Source: a phage
Length of the DNA stretch: 64,000 nucleotides
NCBI GenBank assembly: GCA_022979955.1
Contig: GCA_022979955.1_3642.1
Direction: 5' to 3' (one strand)
Below are positions 2,974 through 58,219 of this stretch, in pieces. Under the pieces are notes generated by a model. The model did not search any database. It saw only the letters and a list, made by a program, of their open reading frames with translations, and was not told where the DNA came from. Numbering within the stretch: position 1 is the stretch's first letter; each line of letters begins with the position of its first letter. The translations under genes and the position numbers were made by a program.

Positions 2974-3171
2974 ATGAACGCCTACGGAATCAAAGTACGT
3001 CGCAGCACTCGCCAGGTGGTCACCGATCAAATGGTTTGCCAGGTGGATGTAACCATCAACAACGGGCAAGGCCTTTATAAATTTCGTCGCGGTCATAGCT
3101 ATACCCTGCAACAGCTTAATCGTTGCGCCCTGACAAAAGGCCAGATCAACCACTGGTTTAATAAAAAATAA
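2974..3171 (+). CDS. hypothetical basic protein
   Basis: ORF track; GAGAGGATAAAAAATC-ATG leader. Confidence 0.5.
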   Translation: MNAYGIKVRRSTRQVVTDQMVCQVDVTINNGQGLYKFRRGHSYTLQQLNRCALTKGQINHWFNKK

Positions 3172-3173
3172 AT

Positions 3174-3203
3174 ATTGACATATAGTCTGACACAAAATAT
3201 ACT
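3174..3203 (+). promoter_or_regulatory. sigma70-like promoter TTGACA-N18-TATACT
   Basis: near-consensus hexamers upstream of gene 3236. Confidence 0.5.
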
Positions 3204-3235
3204 GAAATCACAAAAGACACTAAGAGGATAAAATC

Positions 3236-3634
3236 ATGAAAACCACAACCTTTAATTTTGATAATGCCGACTTCTCTTTTTCTGATGTCAAGAACTGCCG
3301 CCGTGATCGTGGATTTTACAAGGCTTATAATCTGGTTGGCCTGGACGATGATAATAATTTGCACGAAGTAGCGGAGATCCGGTACTATGCCGCCGCCAGC
3401 GGTAACACTAACTATTGCGTTTTTTGGATACACGACAACAAGAACAATAAGTACGGTTATACTGGCGGCAAGGCGAGCGGTCACGGTTATGATAAAGCTA
3501 ACGCAGCACTTGAGAGCGCATTAAATGCTATGGGGATCACTGCCAACGGCTGGGTCTATGAAGAAGAGTTTTTGTCGGCACTTGCTGACCATCTAGGCTA
3601 TAAAAAGCACATTGTAACATGCGCCCACGAATAA
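3236..3634 (+). CDS. hypothetical protein
   Basis: ORF track; AAGAGGATAAAATC-ATG. Confidence 0.55.
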   Translation: MKTTTFNFDNADFSFSDVKNCRRDRGFYKAYNLVGLDDDNNLHEVAEIRYYAAASGNTNYCVFWIHDNKNNKYGYTGGKASGHGYDKANAALESALNAMGITANGWVYEEEFLSALADHLGYKKHIVTCAHE

Positions 3635-3716
3635 AAATCATTGACACGCTGCAAAATTTAAGTAAACTAGGCACAAAAGGTGGGAATGTTTCCCGCCAAC
3701 ACGAAGGAAAAAGATC

Positions 3717-4121
3717 ATGAATAAGAACATACGCCGCATCATGAACGAACTGGCAAACGATGAAAAAATTATTGACATGCATTTAGTCAACATTTGCCGC
3801 CGTTGTGTAACATATAACAACCGCGCCGCAAAAGCGCGTGAGATGAACGCAAAAGGCACCTTAAAGCCATTCCAGGTGGTGGTAAAGGCCATTAAAGATG
3901 TAACTAATACGGCAAACCAGGTACAGGGGAACACCAACGAGAGTACCAATATTGATCCGGCTTACATCATGAAACGGATCCGGACCTGCAAGAACAAAGA
4001 GCAAGTGTATAATGTCATAGACTGGTTGGATTCTATGGGCGATGTGGTTTACAATAGGTTTTCTGCAGCTATCGAGATCCAGCTTGACAGGTTGGACGGT
4101 AAAGTACTGAAAACTTACTAA
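3717..4121 (+). CDS. hypothetical protein
   Basis: ORF track; promoter TTGACA at 3646 and leader hairpin upstream. Confidence 0.55.
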   Translation: MNKNIRRIMNELANDEKIIDMHLVNICRRCVTYNNRAAKAREMNAKGTLKPFQVVVKAIKDVTNTANQVQGNTNESTNIDPAYIMKRIRTCKNKEQVYNVIDWLDSMGDVVYNRFSAAIEIQLDRLDGKVLKTY

Positions 4122-13970: not shown

Positions 13971-14597
13971 GGCGTAGAAACAGTGGAAGTGTAAACAGTC
14001 AATCATGTAAATGATAAGTATGTGAACAGTTATCCATGTAAACTATTAGACATGTAAACAATCAGGTGTGCAAAAGTGTCAAGGGTGTCACCATTGTGTC
14101 TAAAGTGTCGTATGTCATCAGTATGTCAGACAAGTTTTTCTCCTCTTTGTCAAGTGCTGCATGAAAAATTTACAATCTTGTATGGTAGCATTTTTGCGGT
14201 CCTGTTTACATTCAGAGATGTATGTATAATCCTTGTTGTGTGGGCGTTTAGACGTCTAGACGGTCAGAAGTCTGCAGGTCAATATCTAATCTATTGGCTG
14301 CTAACTATATCCCACACAAATAGTAAGAAATATAATTGTTATATGCGTAAACAGTAACCCATGTTATCAATCCCTGTATGGATCGCCAGTGGTGCGCATA
14401 ATGGGTATTATGTTAAATTGCCCGTAATGATAATGGTTCTCACAATGATATGTATTCTCATTCCCCCACACAAAATAGATTGCAAATGTTGTGCCACTAT
14501 GTGAACGGCCTCACCTATTAATTTGCCTCACTGCCTCGATATTTGAGAATTATTATAAGAATGAGAAGTATTCCCATTTCGTCCGCCTGGCAGCGCT

Positions 14598-14900
14598 CCT
14601 GTAGGTCCTGCAAGGACTCTAGCTGAAAGCTAGACCCTTCGGGCCTCCCTGTAGGTCAGGTCAAAATCGTGGTAGAATTGGGCCTATTCAGATATTTCTG
14701 GCTGGCTCTTCAGGTCTGTGTGGGAAAAGCCAACCTCTCCGGCGGGGCAGGGGGAGGTAAATTAAAAAATTTACGGGGTATATGAAGCGCTCTTCAGGTA
14801 AGGCATGTACTATGGGATGAAACCCTCTTCAGGCAATGATATTTGTGGGTGTGATATTTGCTGGAAAGCCAGATATGACGGGACTCCCGGCGGGGCAGGG
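14598..14900. repeat. cluster of short direct repeats: CCTGTAGGTC x2, CTCTTCAGG x3 (4th at 15238), CCGGCGGGGCAGGG x2
   Basis: motifs read at 14598, 14647; 14706, 14790, 14825; 14739, 14887. Confidence 0.55.
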
Positions 14901-15596
14901 GTAGTACAGACAGGGAAAATATGAGAATGTAGTTGGGGAAATTGATCAGACAGGTAGAGTATGGAATATGTTACAAGTATGTTAAATATGGAGGTTGAAT
15001 ATCTGTAGGATTTGTGTGTAAAATCAAAGACTTAAGGGGTGTTGTGGTATTTTCTATAAATAATTCAAGTTTAATAGGCAATATTTGTCTCTATCCGCTT
15101 TGTGTGGTAAACAGATTCAGATTAGATTGGTTTACAAGTGTATACATAATATACAAATTAAAGATACAAGAAACCCCCCTCCCCCTTCGGCTACCATTCA
15201 CCTTTTCCTCTGACTGGTACTTAAACACTTATTCAGACTCTTCAGGTTATCACCCATATATCATATGGCAGTGACTGGTGTCCTCCGGCCCCTCTTTCGT
15301 CACCCGTCCGCTTCGCCATGCTAATGCCATAGCTAATGGTTCGGTTGTTCACCCTGTTCACTCAGGTGTATCTCTATACCCCTTCAAACCGAAGAGAACA
15401 GAAAACCCGAATTACTCGGTAAAAGAAAAGAGAAGAACTTAATTTTATCAGGATAGGCAAGAATGTCAAGGCATGACTGCTCACTAAACAAGCAAACAGT
15501 CATGTGTGGGAGGTAAGTGATTGTGGTGGTAGGAAATTTAGTTGAAAGATGTGTTATAGGTGCTTCCAGCACTTTAGCCTGGCAGCTAATTGTGTG

Positions 15597-15812
15597 TCAG
15601 TCCAGCGGTTCATCCTCTACTTCACTGAAATCAATGTTCATGGTCTCTTCCCAACCATCGATCTCAGCACAAGAGTGGAGTTCTTTAGGGTTTACTCCCA
15701 AAGCCTCAGCAACAGAGTCTATATTTAACACCTCTGGCAGGTATGTTTCATCGAATTCAAGGTAAATCAGGCCACGAGTGTTGTCAGCTCCACCAAATAT
15801 TTCTATCTTCAT
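15597..15812 (-). CDS. hypothetical small acidic protein (MKIEI... N-terminus)
   Basis: ORF track; last gene of - strand block. Confidence 0.45.
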   Translation of the reverse strand: MKIEIFGGADNTRGLIYLEFDETYLPEVLNIDSVAEALGVNPKELHSCAEIDGWEETMNIDFSEVEDEPLD

Positions 15813-15933
15813 GAAATCTCCTCTGGAAATGAGAGTGTGAACAGGGTTTTATACGTTCCAATGCACTGGAATTATACACGTTTGCCTCTTCAGGCCATGC
15901 TTTAGCATGAGGAGCCTGTGTGGGCTCGGTGCT

Positions 15934-16347
15934 TCATAGTCTACCACCTCTGAACTCTTCGTGCTCAGGCATAATAGAGAACCAGATATCTACGATGTCT
16001 TCCCACGTTAGGTCATCAGCCTCAGGATCTGTCTGGGACGAAGATGGAGAATCTTCAGAATCGAAGTTTTCCTCTTGCACTGGCTCAGTCAAGGGACATA
16101 TAGTCACTCCTTTGGATGTCTCTTCAGATGCATGTGTGTTTATCATGTTCCACCCGTGAGTATTCCGGCAACAGCCACTATGGACGTAATGATCATCAGG
16201 ATCACCACCAAAACCTCTGACAATGTTTTCATTGTGTATCCCATATTCTCCAAACGATGTGTGGATACTATCACTGGAGCGGCAATGTGTCAACAGAAAC
16301 GCCGCGAGGGTTTGGTTAAAATCCGAGCGTATGGTGATTTGGGTCAA
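15934..16347 (-). CDS. hypothetical acidic protein
   Basis: ORF track 137 aa. Confidence 0.4.
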   Translation of the reverse strand: MTQITIRSDFNQTLAAFLLTHCRSSDSIHTSFGEYGIHNENIVRGFGGDPDDHYVHSGCCRNTHGWNMINTHASEETSKGVTICPLTEPVQEENFDSEDSPSSSQTDPEADDLTWEDIVDIWFSIMPEHEEFRGGRL

Positions 16348-52421: not shown

Positions 52422-53353
52422 TGCATATAGTCCTCGTTGTGAAAATAGCAATCAAGTATCTCACGGCGTTCCTGCTCCAGGAGGCAGTTCCACACATCTT
52501 CTGTGTAATTGCTACGAATGAAGTTTACCATGCCGTAAAACTCTTCGTCAATACGTTTAAAGATATCATCATCCCAAATCTTCCAAGCTTTACCCCTCAT
52601 TACGGCCTTCCGTGCCAAATAGTATGGAGACTTGATCTTCAGCTGCAGGTCATAAGGGTAGTAAGGCTTACGGATCATATACCCTTCGCCCCTTGTTTCT
52701 GCAGCTAATTCTTTTGCATAGCTGAACGGGATTTCACGCACAGTGTGAGGACGTTTTGCACCAAGGTATTTGGCAATCCCATCTAAAGCTGCTTCTGGTA
52801 GCATTATTCCAGAATCATTATATCTGCAACCTATCAAATATGCGCCATGGTCTTCTTGAACAATATGCGGATCTGAAGGGTGACAAATTTCAAACATGAA
52901 TGTCATGTTTTCATTGCCCATAACCTTCTTGATAAGATCTAAATTACCACATTGCTCTTGGATGGTTTCCTTTGCAAGGTTACAATATGGAGAATCAAGA
53001 GACCCGGTTGTTGAGAACAATAGGTCACCTTTATGAGATGATACCACACCAAGGAATCCGTTCTTTTTCTCTACCGCAGTCACAAGCTTATTGTCAGGCA
53101 GGTTGGTGGAGTTTTCTCCCAAGTTAAACACTTTTGTGAAGGGCCATGCCACAACATTTCCTTCATTACCTACAACAATGCCTCGGCACTCCAGTAAACG
53201 AGGGGACAAATGCCATAAATTGTTGTAAAATACTTTTCTAGCATATTTATAGATCTTTAACCCGAGATCTGGGTAATACCTACTGGTTACAAGACCTTTG
53301 TCAACTAGGTCGTCTGCATTAAAATACTTCATCATACGTTCCTCATTTGTCAT
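52418..53353 (-). CDS. Rnl1-family RNA ligase
   Basis: LLECRGIVVGNEG...TKVFNLGEN...TAVEKKNGFLGVV tracks T4 Rnl1 segment ALECRGIMF...KFFNLNEN...TKEDGSLVS (recalled), incl. motif I lysine. Confidence 0.65.
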   Translation of the reverse strand: MTNEERMMKYFNADDLVDKGLVTSRYYPDLGLKIYKYARKVFYNNLWHLSPRLLECRGIVVGNEGNVVAWPFTKVFNLGENSTNLPDNKLVTAVEKKNGFLGVVSSHKGDLLFSTTGSLDSPYCNLAKETIQEQCGNLDLIKKVMGNENMTFMFEICHPSDPHIVQEDHGAYLIGCRYNDSGIMLPEAALDGIAKYLGAKRPHTVREIPFSYAKELAAETRGEGYMIRKPYYPYDLQLKIKSPYYLARKAVMRGKAWKIWDDDIFKRIDEEFYGMVNFIRSNYTEDVWNCLLEQERREILDCYFHNEDYMQ

Positions 53354-53396
53354 TTTGTCAGTCTATCCTGCCACACAAATAACCTGGTGTCAACAC

Positions 53397-53425
53397 TTGA
53401 AATTAACAAAACAGTTAGGTATACT
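53397..53425 (+). promoter_or_regulatory. sigma70-like promoter TTGAAA-N17-TATACT
   Basis: divergent intergenic region; hexamers read directly. Confidence 0.45.
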
Positions 53426-53453
53426 ATCGTTGAAATTAAAACGGAGGGTCACT

Positions 53454-53864
53454 ATGTCTAAAATGCTATATATCGTGCGTGGTCTGCCAGGGTCTGGCAA
53501 ATCAACACTGGCAAATGCGCTATCTTTAGAGGGTCTGTATCCACATTTTGAGAACGACATGTTCTGGTATGACGATGACGGCAATTACAACTGGGATGCA
53601 AGTAAAGTAACACTCGCAGCGAAATGGTGCAAAGATAACGTAGAAGATATGATGCGTATGGGATACGACCGTATCGTGGTAAGTAATACGTTTACAAAAG
53701 AAAAACATGTGCAGGAATATGTTGACATGGCAATCAGTCATGGGTATAGTTATACCGTGATCGTGGTTGAAAACCGCCACGGTAATAAAAGCATTCATGA
53801 TGTTCCAGACAAGGTTGTGGATCGTATGGAACGCCAGCTTAAAAACTGCATTAAACTTAAATGA
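53454..53864 (+). CDS. polynucleotide kinase-like P-loop kinase
   Basis: ORF 53298..53864 trimmed to ATG with GGAGGG SD; P-loop GLPGSGKST as in T4 Pnk kinase domain. Confidence 0.55.
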   Translation: MSKMLYIVRGLPGSGKSTLANALSLEGLYPHFENDMFWYDDDGNYNWDASKVTLAAKWCKDNVEDMMRMGYDRIVVSNTFTKEKHVQEYVDMAISHGYSYTVIVVENRHGNKSIHDVPDKVVDRMERQLKNCIKLK

Positions 53865-53871
53865 GGAATGT

Positions 53872-54426
53872 ATGAAATACTTTGTAACAAGCGACACACA
53901 CTTTCTCCACCAGCGGGTCATGGAGTTCGATTCATGTCAAAAACACAGATCTCAGTATGATCACAATCTTGACAGTATGAATGCGGGAATCATCACCAAG
54001 TGGAACTCTGTTGTGTCACCTGCAGACACTGTGTTTCACTTGGGAGATATTGCGTGCACTAATGATAAGAATATCAACAAATTGCTCCCAGATGTTCTAA
54101 ATATGTTGAACGGACATATTATTCTTGTTCGTGGTAACCATGACACAAGGACGACTGTCAGAATTATGAAAGAGTTCGGTCATGAGGTTGTAGATTATTA
54201 CGAGCTTCGCCACAACAAGAATTTGATCTGTATGAGCCATTACCAGTTTGCAAAGTGGAACAGAAAGCCTCACGGATCAGTCCAACTGTTCGGTCATGCT
54301 CACGGAACCACACAGCAGTTGTTTGGCAGGCAGTTTGATGTCGGTTGGGATGTGTGGGGGAGACTCTTACCATTAGAAGAGGCATACCGTATTGCAATGA
54401 GTCTTGCTATTGACAGCGGGGAGTAA
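53872..54426 (+). CDS. metallophosphoesterase (calcineurin-like phosphatase)
   Basis: ORF 53767..54426 trimmed to ATG with GAGGA SD; VTSDTHF, HLGDI, VRGNHD motifs. Confidence 0.6.
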   Translation: MKYFVTSDTHFLHQRVMEFDSCQKHRSQYDHNLDSMNAGIITKWNSVVSPADTVFHLGDIACTNDKNINKLLPDVLNMLNGHIILVRGNHDTRTTVRIMKEFGHEVVDYYELRHNKNLICMSHYQFAKWNRKPHGSVQLFGHAHGTTQQLFGRQFDVGWDVWGRLLPLEEAYRIAMSLAIDSGE

Positions 54427-54473
54427 TCCCTGCTATTTTAAAGAAAATTGCCACACAAGGAGAATCAGGAGAT

Positions 54474-54824
54474 ATGAAAGATGGGGATAAGCTGCTATAT
54501 CTTAAAGTCCCCCTTGAAATACTGTCTATGTCAAAAGTTTTGAATGACACAACTGGGGAGGTTGTTGTTCTTGACTTATATGACAAGATCGTATACTGCT
54601 ACCTGCACAACTGGTATAAGCTTGGAGGAAATTCACGCTTCACACCCAGCACAAGGAAAATTGCAGCAGATGTTGGGATAAAGAAAACAAAAGCAGCAGC
54701 GTGCGTTAAAACTTTAGAATGTGCAGGAGTGGTTGAAATATCCACACAAGGGAGAGGTAAAAGATGTACATTTTCCAAAGTTTTGCCACCAGAAGAGGTT
54801 ATTCGAATGTCAACAACTGGTTAG
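54474..54824 (+). CDS. winged-helix/HTH DNA-binding protein (candidate origin-binding or regulatory protein)
   Basis: TRKIAADVGIKKTKAAACVKTLECAGVV HTH-like segment; GAATCAGGAGA SD; iterons immediately downstream. Confidence 0.45.
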   Translation: MKDGDKLLYLKVPLEILSMSKVLNDTTGEVVVLDLYDKIVYCYLHNWYKLGGNSRFTPSTRKIAADVGIKKTKAAACVKTLECAGVVEISTQGRGKRCTFSKVLPPEEVIRMSTTG

Positions 54825-54895
54825 ACCAGTAAAAACTTAAATATCTGTACTATAAGGATTCGTATGTTTTATGTTCGCTCTGGAACAGAGGTCAG

Positions 54896-54981
54896 TAACT
54901 GTCCGTGATACGGACACTACTGTCCGTCACGCGGACACATCTGCCCGTAATACGGACACTAACTGTCCGTGATACGGACAC
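54896..54981. repeat. four tandem 21-22 bp iterons, each with core GTCCGT-N3/4-ACGGACAC
   Basis: 54896..54917, 54918..54938, 54939..54959, 54960..54981 read directly; copies 1 and 4 identical. Confidence 0.7.
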
Positions 54982-55125
54982 ATAAAGAATATAACTAAAA
55001 TAACTAAATAATAAAAATAAAAGATCTAGTACTTATGGTACTAAGTACATATACTTAACTTATGTAGAATATACTAGATCCTAAGTACCATGTTTTAAAA
55101 TTATTACTTACTATAGGTAGTGTCG
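54982..55125. other. AT-rich tract with short palindromes next to the iterons (candidate DNA-unwinding element)
   Basis: ATAACTAAA x2, AGTAC...GTACT palindromes; no ORF. Confidence 0.45.
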
Positions 55126-55400
55126 GCCCTTCATTGGCACTCGCCTACGAGGGGCGAGATGCCGGGCCTCCTTGGTGCACACAATAACAGAAGTGCATAC
55201 ATGCAGGTCTGTTAACATGTGTGGGAGCGAAGCGATAGCGCAGGCCAAAGGCCGAGCACTGATGTGGACCACCGACGAAAGCTTGCCAGCGCCGTAAGGA
55301 GTCGGTTGAGAGTCTCCCGCGCGAGCTTGGATGAAGTTTATGTGTGGAAACTGACAAGAAGGCCCCTAAATCGCTCCACAGCTATATAAACTATACCAGG
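55126..55400. ncRNA. candidate structured non-coding RNA (GC-rich, nested hairpins)
   Basis: no SD-associated ORF; nested stem GGCCC..GGCA/CTCGCC-TACGAG-GGCGAG/TGCC..GGGCC and further hairpins. Confidence 0.35.
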
Positions 55401-55483
55401 TAATGCAATCGCACCAGTTTGATAGAAAAGCTCGTTACAAAGTGATACAGTGAGTTTTTCTATAACTTGAAGAGGAGGCAGCT

Positions 55484-56062
55484 ATGGGTTCACGCAAAGA
55501 TGACCGTGAAAAGATTGCAAAACGTTATCAGAATGAAGAACAGATGGAGAAAACTTTCAAGTGGAAGCCTGGTTTCCAGCGTAATCATTCTAACGCTCGT
55601 GATCGTAAGCATCCGGATAAGTGGCTAACACCGCCAAATGATGGCATGCAGGTTGGTGATGAGAAGGAGATGTCACCTGGAAAAGATGGCAACTACATTC
55701 GCACTAAGGAAGCTGGTCCAAAGGATGACAGCTATCTTGTAGATAAGGTTCTTAATGGTATTGATGTAGATGTTGACACTGCACGAAACCTTTTTCTTGG
55801 TTGGTATCGTACAGGGTTTTTCGACATCAAGGCTATTCGTCGTGTTTGCGATATTAAAAAGTCTGCCTATGATGATGACTCCCTACATCGCACTCTGAGA
55901 CAATACTCAGAGAGATACGGTCATCCAGTTATCACTCTTGACGATATTAACGAAGTGATGTATCATGCAGAGGTTGTTGCAGGTAGATTCGGTGATGCAT
56001 ATCTAGATATCCTTTCTGCAAAGGATGAGGTAATGTTAAATAAGATTTACTATGAACGCTGA
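55484..56062 (+). CDS. hypothetical protein
   Basis: ORF track; GAGGAGG SD. Confidence 0.5.
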   Translation: MGSRKDDREKIAKRYQNEEQMEKTFKWKPGFQRNHSNARDRKHPDKWLTPPNDGMQVGDEKEMSPGKDGNYIRTKEAGPKDDSYLVDKVLNGIDVDVDTARNLFLGWYRTGFFDIKAIRRVCDIKKSAYDDDSLHRTLRQYSERYGHPVITLDDINEVMYHAEVVAGRFGDAYLDILSAKDEVMLNKIYYER

Positions 56063-56589: not shown

Positions 56590-56900
56590 CGTGTATCATG
56601 ATGAATATCCAATTTAAAGATGAATTTGATGGCTTTATCTCCGGATGCTTTGAAACAGGGTTCGGAGAAGACTGAGTTCCCCTCAGAGGGCTTGATAGTG
56701 CACCACACTTAAAATGGTAGGGGCAGCCAGCACATGACGATGTGACCCCAGCCAACCTGTAACAAGGTCGAGCCGAAGCGCGGGTAATAGGCCTCTGGTA
56801 ACCCACTTGTTGGGTCTTGCTGGTCCAGGACGCTGGACAAGTCGCAGGGAATACCACCCTGCGGCGAACTTGACAATCAGTATTTGCTATGATAAAATCC
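56590..56900. ncRNA. candidate structured non-coding region (several GC hairpins)
   Basis: hairpins CACATGACGATGTG, GTCCAGG-ACG-CTGGAC, CGCAGGG-AATACCA-CCCTGCG; ORF 56807 start lacks SD. Confidence 0.3.
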
Positions 56901-57361: not shown

Positions 57362-57436
57362 GCCCTGTTAGCTTAGTGGATAAAGCAGCGGCCTTCTAAG
57401 CCGTTGACACTGGTTCGAGTCCAGTACGGGGTGCCA
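57362..57436 (+). tRNA. tRNA-Arg (anticodon UCU)
   Basis: hand-folded cloverleaf: acceptor GCCCTGT/ACGGGGT, anticodon loop CTTCTAA, T-loop TTCGAGT, 3' CCA encoded. Confidence 0.7.
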
Positions 57437-57440
57437 AATT

Positions 57441-57527
57441 GGGGAGTTATCCCGTAGAGGTAGCGGTGTAGACTGTAAATCTATTGTCATTGCGACTCGG
57501 GTGGTTCGACTCCACCACTCCCCACCA
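57441..57527 (+). tRNA. tRNA-Tyr (anticodon GUA), type II long variable arm
   Basis: acceptor GGGGAGT/ACTCCCC, anticodon loop CTGTAAA, T-arm GGTGG-TTCGACT-CCACC, CCA encoded. Confidence 0.7.
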
Positions 57528-57641
57528 AATTTATATTTTTAGATGCGTAAATAATACAGATAATGGCATTGATATTTATCGTCGTTTATACTAGTCACTA
57601 ACTGCTCGAAAATCAGTGTCATTATCAGTATAATTTATAAA

Positions 57642-57732
57642 GGAGGGTAGGGAGCAATGGTGCTCAAGCGGTCTTGAAAACCGTCCCATTGAGGATGACT
57701 CGATGATGGTTCGATTCCATTACTCTCCGCCA
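57642..57732 (+). tRNA. tRNA-Ser (anticodon UGA), type II
   Basis: acceptor GGAGGGT/ACTCTCC, anticodon loop CTTGAAA, long variable arm, T-loop TTCGATT, CCA encoded. Confidence 0.65.
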
Positions 57733-57830
57733 CATTGTTGACCTTGTAATTAAGCGAAAGCCGGAAGCAGAACCGGATTATCAAATGTTACAGTCGTCAT
57801 CGCCGACTAGCAACATGGTCAACATACTGA

Positions 57831-57927
57831 GCTAGGTAAGCCCTTTGGCAAGGGCGAGGATTTTTAATCCTGAAAATAGACGAGGTAGTCGTTGAATACA
57901 TAGGTGGTTCGATTCCACCGCCTAGCA
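57831..57927 (+). tRNA. atypical tRNA-like gene (anticodon loop TTTTTAA, nominal Lys-UUU) with about 30-nt extra arm
   Basis: acceptor GCTAGGT/GCCTAGC, D-arm GCCC-TTTGGCAA-GGGC, T-arm GGTGG-TTCGATT-CCACC; 4-bp anticodon stem; no encoded CCA. Confidence 0.35.
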
Positions 57928-57933
57928 CCTTTT

Positions 57934-58009
57934 GCTGATGTAGCACAATTGGCAGTGCAATTGATTTGTAATCAATAGGTTGCAGGTTCAAGTCCTGCCA
58001 TCAGCACCA
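57934..58009 (+). tRNA. tRNA-Thr (anticodon UGU)
   Basis: acceptor GCTGATG/CATCAGC, anticodon stem ATTGA/TCAAT with loop TTTGTAA, T-arm GCAGG-TTCAAGT-CCTGC, CCA encoded. Confidence 0.75.
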
Positions 58010-58010
58010 T

Positions 58011-58085
58011 GGCCCTGTAGCTGGAAGGTTCAAGCAAGCGACTCATAATCGCCAGATGGTGGTTCAATTCCACCCAGGGCCACCA
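58011..58085 (+). tRNA. tRNA with CAU anticodon (Met, or Ile if lysidine-modified)
   Basis: acceptor GGCCCTG/CAGGGCC, anticodon loop CTCATAA, T-arm GGTGG-TTCAATT-CCACC, CCA encoded. Confidence 0.65.
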
Positions 58086-58096
58086 AATTATAAATA

Positions 58097-58163
58097 CTCC
58101 GCGTAGCTCAGCTTGGTAGAGCGCCTGATTTGGGATCAGGAGGTCGAGTGTTCGAATCACTCC
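58097..58163 (+). tRNA. tRNA-Pro (anticodon UGG)
   Basis: acceptor CTCCGCG/CGTGGAG, anticodon stem CCTGA/TCAGG with loop TTTGGGA, T-loop TTCGAAT, CCA encoded. Confidence 0.7.
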
Positions 58164-58219
58164 GTGGAGACCACCTTTAGTTATACTTTAAACATATACA
58201 AACGAAAGGAACCTTTAAA

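Follow-up and report, generated by a model that had tools for sequence, protein, structure and literature searches.

The locus and its origin context

The stretch of DNA analysed here, called the window below, comprises 64,000 nucleotides of a phage contig (GCA_022979955.1_3642.1, NCBI GenBank assembly GCA_022979955.1) from a Vequintavirus, that is, an rV5-like Escherichia coli myovirus, and the region under study is 100% identical to rV5-like phage records. Between a candidate replication origin and the next gene, the window carries a GC-rich element, which an earlier note had placed at 55126-55400 and proposed to be a stable small RNA (sRNA), a riboregulator or a part of the origin. As can be stated firmly, this element is a conserved, non-coding unit that is folded on the + strand and linked to iteron-type origins with differing initiators and iterons.

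From left to right, the locus consists of a sigma-70-like promoter, a gene for a winged-helix initiator-like protein of 116 amino acids (aa), four iterons, an AT-rich tract, the element itself and a gene for a protein of 192 aa, and the + strand is the sense strand of the flanking genes (Table 1). The 116-aa protein is called “replication initiation protein” in some records and “transcriptional regulator” in others, and its matches to the Pfam families HTH_36 and DUF6945 are slightly under the cut-offs. At the position of the iterons, a repeat_region is annotated in the record of phage pangalan. Direct repeats at helical spacing, an adjoining AT-rich tract and a neighbouring initiator gene are all present, as expected of an iteron-type origin, and the locus is therefore a candidate origin, as judged from its sequence.

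The promoter matches in position the sigma-70 promoter “P76” annotated in the rV5 record, and it is presumed to be the source of rightward early transcription through the origin and the element. No terminator-like sites were found in 53300-55600 except one weak intragenic site at 54013, and no consensus promoter was found ahead of the 192-aa gene; in the rV5 record, promoters are annotated only before ORF79 and after ORF76. Since the promoter of the initiator-like gene is followed by no terminator-like site up to 55600 and the 192-aa gene is preceded by no consensus promoter, the element is probably located, according to these promoter and terminator scans, inside an early transcription unit that crosses the iteron-type origin.

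Fold and covariation of the element

The element is indeed much more GC-rich than its surroundings, with a GC content of 0.55 (55100-55299) and 0.535 (55200-55399) against 0.345-0.445 in the adjacent windows of 200 nucleotides (nt). The nested stems described in the earlier note are also present, namely GGCCC (55125-55129) with GGGCC (55164-55168), GGCA (55136-55139) with TGCC (55160-55163) and CTCGCC (55140-55145) with GGCGAG (55153-55158), and a GGCC-AAA-GGCC stem is likewise read directly from the sequence at 55243-55253. Folded as RNA, the + strand reaches -106.9 kcal/mol (z = -3.1), a stability equalled by none of 200 dinucleotide shuffles, and the - strand reaches -101.7 kcal/mol (z = -2.5), while the + strand folded with DNA parameters has z = -2.4. 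The conserved unit begins slightly 5' of position 55126, at 55113-55122, and its strongly constrained part extends to about 55329; the remainder, 55330-55400, diverges about like silent sites.

The unit is composed of a GC-rich hairpin (P1), a variable hairpin (P2), a core domain and a weakly conserved tail (Table 1). P1 is invariant across 16 Vequintavirus-type sequences, and it is not an intrinsic terminator, since the hairpin is followed by CCUCCUUGG and no terminator-like site occurs on either strand of 54800-55600. P2 remains paired in the metagenomic relative L003 described below, with one double change from A-U to C-G and two changes from A-U to G.U, yet its identity there is only 67%. 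In rV5, Murica and A6-1, a deletion of 18 nt in P2 leaves a shorter perfect hairpin of 8 bp, CACACAUG/CAUGUGUG. We also considered GGTGCACACAA in P2 as a XerC half-site, and rejected it, since the partner arm and the spacing do not fit and a perfect dif-like site is located elsewhere in the window.

In the core domain, the branched hairpin contains a CC-GNAA-GG tetraloop that varies at its second base only (GUAA or GGAA), which is the behaviour of a GNRA loop. A consensus obtained by RNAalifold from the phages alone, in which GCC pairs with GGU inside the core, is broken by the plasmid sequence, which supports ACCGAC/GUCGGU instead. It is plausible that a G.U-rich helix closes the core domain: its ten pairs can form on the + strand in all 11 family types, with -10 to -18 kcal/mol, while on the - strand the helix is weaker in 11 of 11 types, although nearly equal in one. 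This helix is without any variation among the phages, and its UGUGUG could alternatively pair locally with CACACA of P2. As a separate observation, both GAGC copies flanking the hairpin 55237-55270 (55225-55228 and 55254-55257) are UAGC in phage B9-1 (alignment A2), that is, two G-to-T changes 29 nt apart in one lineage, for which no proposed pair accounts.

Comparison of relatives for compensatory base changes, as proposed in the earlier note, gave five double changes between phages and a plasmid, L031 (NZ_CP020521.1). The alignment (A3) covered P1 and the core in nine distinct phage-type sequences (Vequintaviruses and L003) together with L031, and 26 pairs were tested. All of the 260 cells are standard pairs, so that 26 of 26 pairs are intact in every sequence. 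Two of the five pairs changed on both sides are in P1, where GGCA/UGCC and CUCGCC/GGCGAG of the phages become GUCA/UGAC and CUCUCC/GGAGAG in L031, and three are in the core stem of six pairs, for which the plasmids have GCUGCC/GGCAGC; in two phages, the same stem has a change from A-U to G.U. None of 500 column shuffles reaches this result, and double changes appear in none of six slid controls. Within the tested helices all substitutions are compensated, and the intervening sequence is unchanged.

As for the strand, 13 of 14 family members show a more stable fold on the + strand than on its complement, and in the plasmids the margin is as large as 16 kcal/mol. Where only one partner of a pair in the tested helices was substituted, the outcome read on the + strand is G.U in six pairs and A.C in two. 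On this evidence, the + strand is favoured.

Table 1. Coordinates of the features at the locus and of the recurrent 8-mer in the window.
Feature	Position	Strand	Basis or remark
Sigma-70-like promoter, TTGACA-18-TATTTT, with TG before it	54410-54439	+	Consensus scan, 10/12 matches; upstream of the initiator-like gene
Winged-helix initiator-like protein, 116 aa	54474-54824	+	PHROG 12838 “replication initiation protein”, E = 2.5e-80
Four direct repeats (iterons), spacing 21-22 bp, core ACTGTCCGTGATACGGACAC	54890-54981		Repeat search
AT-rich tract, putative DNA-unwinding region	54982-55115		GC 0.345-0.365 (54900-55199)
P1, GC-rich hairpin of 15 bp in three segments, GGCCC/GGGCC, GGCA/UGCC and CUCGCC/GGCGAG, loop UACGAGG	55125-55168	+	
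P2, variable hairpin, outer stem CACACA/UGUGUG, inner stem UAACAGA/UCUGUUA	55178-55223	+	
Core domain, irregular hairpin 55237-55270 (with GGCC-AAA-GGCC) and branched hairpin	55218-55323	+	90% identity in L003
Possible closing helix of the core, ten pairs including three G.U, UGUGUGGGAG with CUCCCGCGCG	55218-55227 with 55314-55323	+	
Branched core hairpin, stem ACCGAC/GUCGGU enclosing invariant GAAAGCUUGCCAGCGCC and a CC-GUAA-GG tetraloop hairpin (55292-55299)	55271-55306	+	
Weakly conserved tail, with short shared motif GCCCCUAAAUCGC at 55362-55374	55324-55400	+	61% identity in L003
Block upstream of the 192-aa gene, including its Shine-Dalgarno sequence; outside the GC-rich element	55410-55483	+	Sequence comparison
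Downstream gene, 192 aa	55484-56062	+	No Pfam family; PHROG without assigned function
TGTGTGGG/CCCACACA sites	1905, 6933, 11856, 14237, 14311, 14465, 14717, 15503, 15917, 19726, 54351, 55218		

Coding potential and known RNA families

The earlier note held that the region lacks any open reading frame (ORF) with a Shine-Dalgarno sequence. Short ORFs do occur (31, 41 and 56 aa on the + strand, 53 and 70 aa on the - strand), yet they are not conserved as coding sequences. One or two small ORFs are annotated in each of the records of rV5, ECML-10 and BASEL-collection phages, some as “ORF 78”. When the alignment is read in the “ORF 78” frame, its 53 variable columns are split 16:19:18 by codon position, i.e., without bias; a stop is located at codon 3 in B9-1, and L003 has a premature stop. 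The first small ORF is disrupted by a +1 insertion in ECML-10 and in L003. Consequently, a degenerate gene remnant, the outcome that according to the earlier note would have refuted the idea, is rejected: there is no codon bias, relatives contain stops, and the sequence is conserved at 90-96% where silent sites are at 70%. What stands is a structured non-coding element, with conserved secondary structure, compensatory changes and a favoured + strand.

A scan of the whole window with Rfam 15 at the gathering threshold gave only five tRNA matches, and a scan of 54800-55600 with E up to 10 gave sub-threshold matches at chance level, the best being rli43 with 20.7 bits against a cut-off of 100. 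Two whole plasmids scanned with E up to 0.1 gave no match either. Thus, no described family fits the element in the covariance-model search suggested earlier. With ARAGORN, no tRNA or tmRNA fold was found in 55100-55400, and the seven tRNA genes are all located in 57362-58173.

Relatives in phages and metagenomes

By blastn (word size 11) against 50,697 phage records, the stretch 55100-55420 was found in 119 records, all of them Vequintavirus, with at least 89% identity, and no relative was found outside this genus, at a sensitivity limit of about 65-70% identity. A profile search (nhmmer) of the window, of L018 and of the corresponding position in Seunavirus and Mydovirus phages, where the genes are tightly packed, gave no further copies.

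A more distant relative is present in the IMG/VR contig UViG_3300010279_000001 (locus L003), whose downstream protein is 83% identical to the 192-aa protein. The homology of L003 to the window starts exactly at the first base of the element (55122); the repeats upstream differ, and the initiator-like protein has only 27% aa identity to that of the window. The identity between the two is 96% in P1, 90% in the core, 67% in P2 and 61% in the tail, and it is 70% at the third codon positions of the adjacent gene. Because P1 and the core are more conserved than third codon positions, this comparison indicates that they are under purifying selection at the nucleotide level. A conserved-word scan of IMG/VR returned the L003 contig only, plus one chance match in a terminase gene, and a gapped pattern returned nothing. 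The same kind of scan gave four close copies and eight chance matches in metagenomes, and 95 matches, all due to chance, in the GTDB species representatives (one genome per species).

Two sets of records deserve mention here. Eighteen MG0656xx records labelled as Campylobacter jejuni phages (“Campylobacter phage D1”, “C15”, “A12a” and others) are 99-100% identical to E. coli Vequintaviruses in this region, probably because of mistaken host labels or else mixed lysates. In PLSDB, CP057073.1 (137,565 bp), from a culture of cattle faeces, is a complete genome of Vequintavirus size filed as an E. coli “plasmid”, with an element 99.3% identical, which could be a carrier state or a contaminating phage.

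The element in small capsid- and tail-encoding plasmids

Among complete E. coli genomes and PLSDB, blastn also detected partial matches to the element, with about 85% identity and E = 2e-9 to 5e-10 in 28 Gb, in circular plasmids of 13.2-13.7 kb; the segment responsible for these matches is the branched hairpin. A plasmid of this family was detected in seven E. coli genomes out of 5,426 complete ones, and one record of 39.6 kb consists of three tandem plasmid units. The loci compared were L031/L033 (NZ_CP020521.1), L132 (NZ_CP043822.1), L133-L136 and L034-L036. These plasmids encode a major capsid protein, a Dit-like tail (baseplate) protein, a tape-measure protein and a weakly O-like initiator, and among phages the capsid protein matches only myoviruses of about 140-150 kb, at about 22-25% identity. 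The plasmids may be satellites, or phage-plasmids of miniature size, and no description of them was found in the searchable literature.

In their non-coding region of about 2.3 kb, iterons that vary from plasmid to plasmid, an AT-rich stretch and a dif-like site precede a run of hairpin modules. In nine plasmids with at least five iteron types, the element is located 100-300 nt beyond the repeats, and the module type is independent of the iteron type. The module run of NZ_CP020521.1 opens with a copy of P1 and closes with a copy of the core, and one to several other hairpin modules take the place of P2 in the plasmids. Four other plasmids have a different hairpin in place of P1, and in four more the branched core hairpin is substituted, with the flanking AUGUGGA and (G)GAGUCUCCCGCGCG retained. 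Motifs of the form CCYCUAAAU, which resemble the tail motif GCCCCUAAAUCGC, occur 3' of the core in the plasmids, and the sister modules include C-UUCG-G loops. No gene is called at the element in the NCBI annotation of the plasmids.

Apart from the element, the only similarity between the plasmids and the window is a patch of 57 nt at 16071-16127, within an ORF of 137 aa on the - strand (15934-16347) that has no Pfam match; the patch is 79% identical at the nucleotide level, and 68% identical over 22 aa, to the gene of the plasmid O-like initiator.

In view of the phages, L003 and the plasmids, the structured arm is, on these sequence comparisons, the conserved part of the cassette, around which the initiator and the iterons have been swapped.

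Interpretation

How then did the three suggestions of the earlier note fare? A stable sRNA finds no support as a discrete RNA, with no promoter-like site directly upstream, no terminator and no Rfam family. A riboregulator of the downstream gene is unlikely: a homologue 50% identical to the 192-aa protein (P0006), whose upstream gene ends 60 nt before it, is without the element, and in the plasmids the element lies upstream of strong promoters and precedes unrelated genes. A part of the origin fits the linkage of the element to iteron-type origins in three unrelated Rep/iteron contexts, though the origin role itself is something that we infer.

Tentatively, we prefer to explain the element as a structured RNA encoded in cis, which would arise when early transcription from the initiator promoter reads through, and which would form the conserved arm of an exchangeable origin cassette. 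Early transcription would start at the initiator promoter and, unhindered by terminators, cross first the initiator gene, then the iterons and then the AT-rich tract. The element would then be copied, and the + strand RNA would fold into the stable 5' hairpin P1, the variable P2 and a compact core domain, the latter made up of the branched hairpin with its GNRA loop and possibly closed by the G.U-rich helix. The RNA might act in cis when the origin fires, its co-transcriptional folding confining an RNA-DNA hybrid or the opening of the strands to the AT-rich tract, and/or the element might bind a replication or host factor common to all carriers. We consider action as RNA the most likely, in view of loops of the GNRA and C-UUCG-G kinds, a helix rich in G.U pairs, the extended modular arrays of the plasmids and a read-through that is probable; transcription, action as RNA rather than as single-stranded DNA, and the role are what we infer from these pointers.

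Several points weigh against this explanation. The z-scores of the + strand as RNA and as DNA cannot tell RNA from single-stranded DNA. All of the five double changes come from a single split between the phage and plasmid lineages and thus amount to one comparison, and covariation within the phages alone is not significant, variation being too low (98.6% paired, with one double change, in P2). One strand of the closing helix, TGTGTGGG, is over-represented in other non-coding DNA of the window, and it may be a DNA motif instead of a pairing partner. In 54800-55600, there is neither a promoter-like site immediately upstream nor a terminator that would bound a discrete RNA. In the plasmids, the element is located upstream of strong promoters and downstream of a terminator-like hairpin, and transcription across it is doubtful there. 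Finally, the role in origin firing is a guess to which we commit ourselves.

Possible, though on the unlikely side, is a priming signal in single-stranded DNA (ssi): once the AT-rich tract opens, the + strand would be the lagging-strand template of the rightward fork, and its hairpins, free of SSB, the protein that binds single-stranded DNA, would recruit primase or a primosome, the primer being extended leftward as the first leading strand. Such a signal would account for a strand-specific, covariation-supported hairpin cluster that is located at the edge of the AT-rich tract, on the would-be lagging-strand template, and accompanies origins, not any particular gene. The folding with DNA parameters, which beats shuffles, also agrees with it. 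A loop of the C-GAA-G type is unusually stable in DNA, and GCGAAGC is found at 55228-55234 as well as several C-GAA-G loops in the plasmids. Immediately 5' of P1 there is GTGTC (window 55120-55124, and L031) or GGGTC (L003, 2134-2138), which we take to be canonical recognition pentamers of T7-type primase, a coincidence being possible. However, the plasmid versions are arrays of many modules, several hundred nt in length and well beyond known ssi needs; loops typical of RNA are present, namely C-UUCG-G and a GNRA loop in which the second base is free; as DNA, the closing helix with its many G.U pairs would be weak, and blastn against the 50,697 phage records revealed no similarity to G4-like phages or to anything else outside Vequintavirus.

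It is rather unlikely that the element is a structured RNA with a job outside replication, which merely travels with the origin cassette, such as a trans-acting decoy or sponge for a host or defence protein, a self-cleaving ribozyme of a new type, or an element for processing or stability of the early transcript. It looks like a compact tertiary fold, in that junction nucleotides are conserved, peripheral stems vary and a GNRA loop is present; in addition, the plasmid modules are shuffled irrespective of the iteron type, RNA-repair and tRNA genes lie in the neighbourhood, and similar three-hairpin modules occur elsewhere in the phage (14600-14660). Nevertheless, no Rfam ribozyme, riboswitch or sRNA family was matched even at E up to 10, no promoter or terminator bounds a discrete RNA, and the constant place beside origins would be left unexplained.

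There is little likelihood that the element is a feature of double-stranded origin DNA, i.e., a GC-rich limit to unwinding or a cluster of protein sites formed by the TGTGTGGG boxes and a weak DnaA-box-like TGTGGA. It does adjoin the AT-rich tract, and the 8-mer TGTGTGGG/CCCACACA has 12 sites in the window against 2.0 expected, a count reached in 0 of 100 shuffles; eight of the sites are outside any ORF of at least 80 aa, and two more are under a doubtful 81-aa ORF only. To the left of about 14.5 kb most copies of TGTGTGGG are in - orientation, and most of those to the right are in +; in NZ_CP020521.1, the orientation flips at the iteron region of the plasmid origin. But duplex sites would not be expected to show five double changes that preserve pairing while the sequence in between stays as it is, and the strand asymmetry of folding would be left unexplained as well. 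TGTGGA was itself rejected as a DnaA-box core, since only 6-7 of 9 positions match and ATGTGGA shows no enrichment.

A small protein gene (“ORF 78”, 55219-55389, or 55120-55215) or its decaying remnant is hardly credible: ORFs of 31-56 aa do exist on the + strand and some phage records annotate them, but the even codon positions, the stops, the +1 insertions, the conservation above silent sites and the absence of a gene there in the plasmid annotation all speak against it, and the stem changes relative to the plasmids are radical in amino acids (H-R-R to R-C-R, S-R-L to R-Q-Q).

Comparison with known systems

Signals of the ssi type are known near origins, e.g., the complementary-strand origin of G4, the G-site beside oriR of R1/R100 and the ssi sites of F, R6K and ColE2. 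Like the element, they are strand-specific, stable hairpins in non-coding DNA beside the unwinding region and independent of initiator specificity; the element differs from them in being longer and modular (several hundred nt in the plasmids), in having RNA-typical loops, and in that no sequence similarity was found.

Transcripts with a part in priming or activating replication are known from ColE1 (RNA II), from the origin promoters of T7 and T4 and from the transcriptional activation of the lambda ori. They have in common with the proposed RNA of the element that a structured transcript is tied to the origin, and that transcription through or next to the AT-rich region matters. RNA II is transcribed toward the origin of ColE1, its 3' end becoming the primer, and ColE1 has no iterons and no initiator of its own. 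In contrast, the favoured strand here runs outward from the iterons and the AT-rich tract, at an origin with iterons and its own initiator, and no promoter-like site was found on the - strand of 54800-55600, as a primer RNA of the ColE1 type would need.

In the minimal oriV of RK2, a GC-rich segment is located by the AT-rich region, and it is short and not known to depend on secondary structure. The order of iterons, AT-rich region and GC-rich stretch is the same as at this locus, whereas the pairing of the element is kept by compensatory changes.

The CI RNA of P4 and the c4 RNA of P1/P7 are processed regulatory RNAs of phage-plasmids and satellites. They resemble the element as structured, non-coding control regions of phage-related replicons living as plasmids, with exchangeable specificity modules. 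Unlike c4-type RNAs, the element has no Rfam match and no identified target repeats, and it is located upstream of strong promoters, not in a leader.

Two stable orphan structured RNAs are encoded in the tRNA cluster of T4, which, like the element, are GC-rich, folded, non-coding stretches in an AT-rich phage genome with a tRNA cluster nearby. The element, however, is about 2 kb and four genes away from the tRNA cluster, has no tRNA-like fold and is linked to an origin.

Structured elements beside origins are known in kind; this one has an architecture of its own, lacks detected relatives outside a narrow group and is unexpectedly present in plasmids with capsid and tail genes. In the searchable literature, nothing specific was found on the origin, iterons, transcriptomes or non-coding RNA of rV5-like phages.

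Other features of the window

The block between the element and the 192-aa gene is nearly invariant in all 16 sequences, including L003, and has a single copy in the window. The block may act as a protein-binding site or as a promoter specific to the phage, and no sigma-70 consensus match was found within it. The AlphaFold model of the 192-aa protein has a mean pLDDT of 48.7, which is too low for a fold search. In L003, a Bro-N/ANT (KilAC) antirepressor-like gene (3069-3932) directly follows the 192-aa gene, and it is not at this position in the window.

A second GC-rich patch (0.50-0.535) is located at 56630-56900, where relatives annotate no gene. It folds no better than shuffles (z = -1.8 on the + strand and -1.4 on the - strand) and has no Rfam match; at its 3' end, a near-perfect promoter, TTGACA-17-TAAAAT, can be seen by eye at about 56870-56898. 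Within the tRNA cluster, at 57831-57929, there is according to ARAGORN a tRNA-like gene of 99 nt whose anticodon has four bases (atcc); it is called “tRNA-OTHER” or “tRNA-Lys” in other records, and the Rfam tRNA model is silent on it at the gathering score.

A second region, 14200-15930, comprises about 1.7 kb without a credible ORF. Its sequence is conserved throughout the Vequintaviruses, and it lies near the start or the end of several genome records. It contains a perfect dif-like XerC/XerD site, GGTGCGCATAA-TGGGTA-TTATGTTAAAT, at 14391-14418, repeated CTCTTCAGG(T/C) motifs and a C-rich run. At 14600-14660, there is a three-hairpin module with a C-UUCG-G loop, which is built like the modules of the 13-kb plasmids. 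The region could serve in maintenance or in packaging, or as a second origin.

Significance

The rV5-like phages are widely isolated and are used in phage cocktails against E. coli, and the present analysis defines a candidate origin cassette for them, in which a structured arm follows an initiator gene, iterons and an AT-rich tract. The compensated stems are direct targets for mutagenesis aimed at a need for structure, in RNA or in single-stranded DNA, when the origin fires. The arm is common to a lytic phage genus and to rare 13-kb plasmids, which points to gene flow or to a relationship of helper and satellite. A bolder conjecture, which we regard as distinctly doubtful, is that the element represents a new class of structured RNA marking an exchangeable origin-proximal module, that its core binds a shared factor or is catalytic, and that the plasmids are satellites or relatives which copy the RNA of their helper for replication, sensing or packaging.

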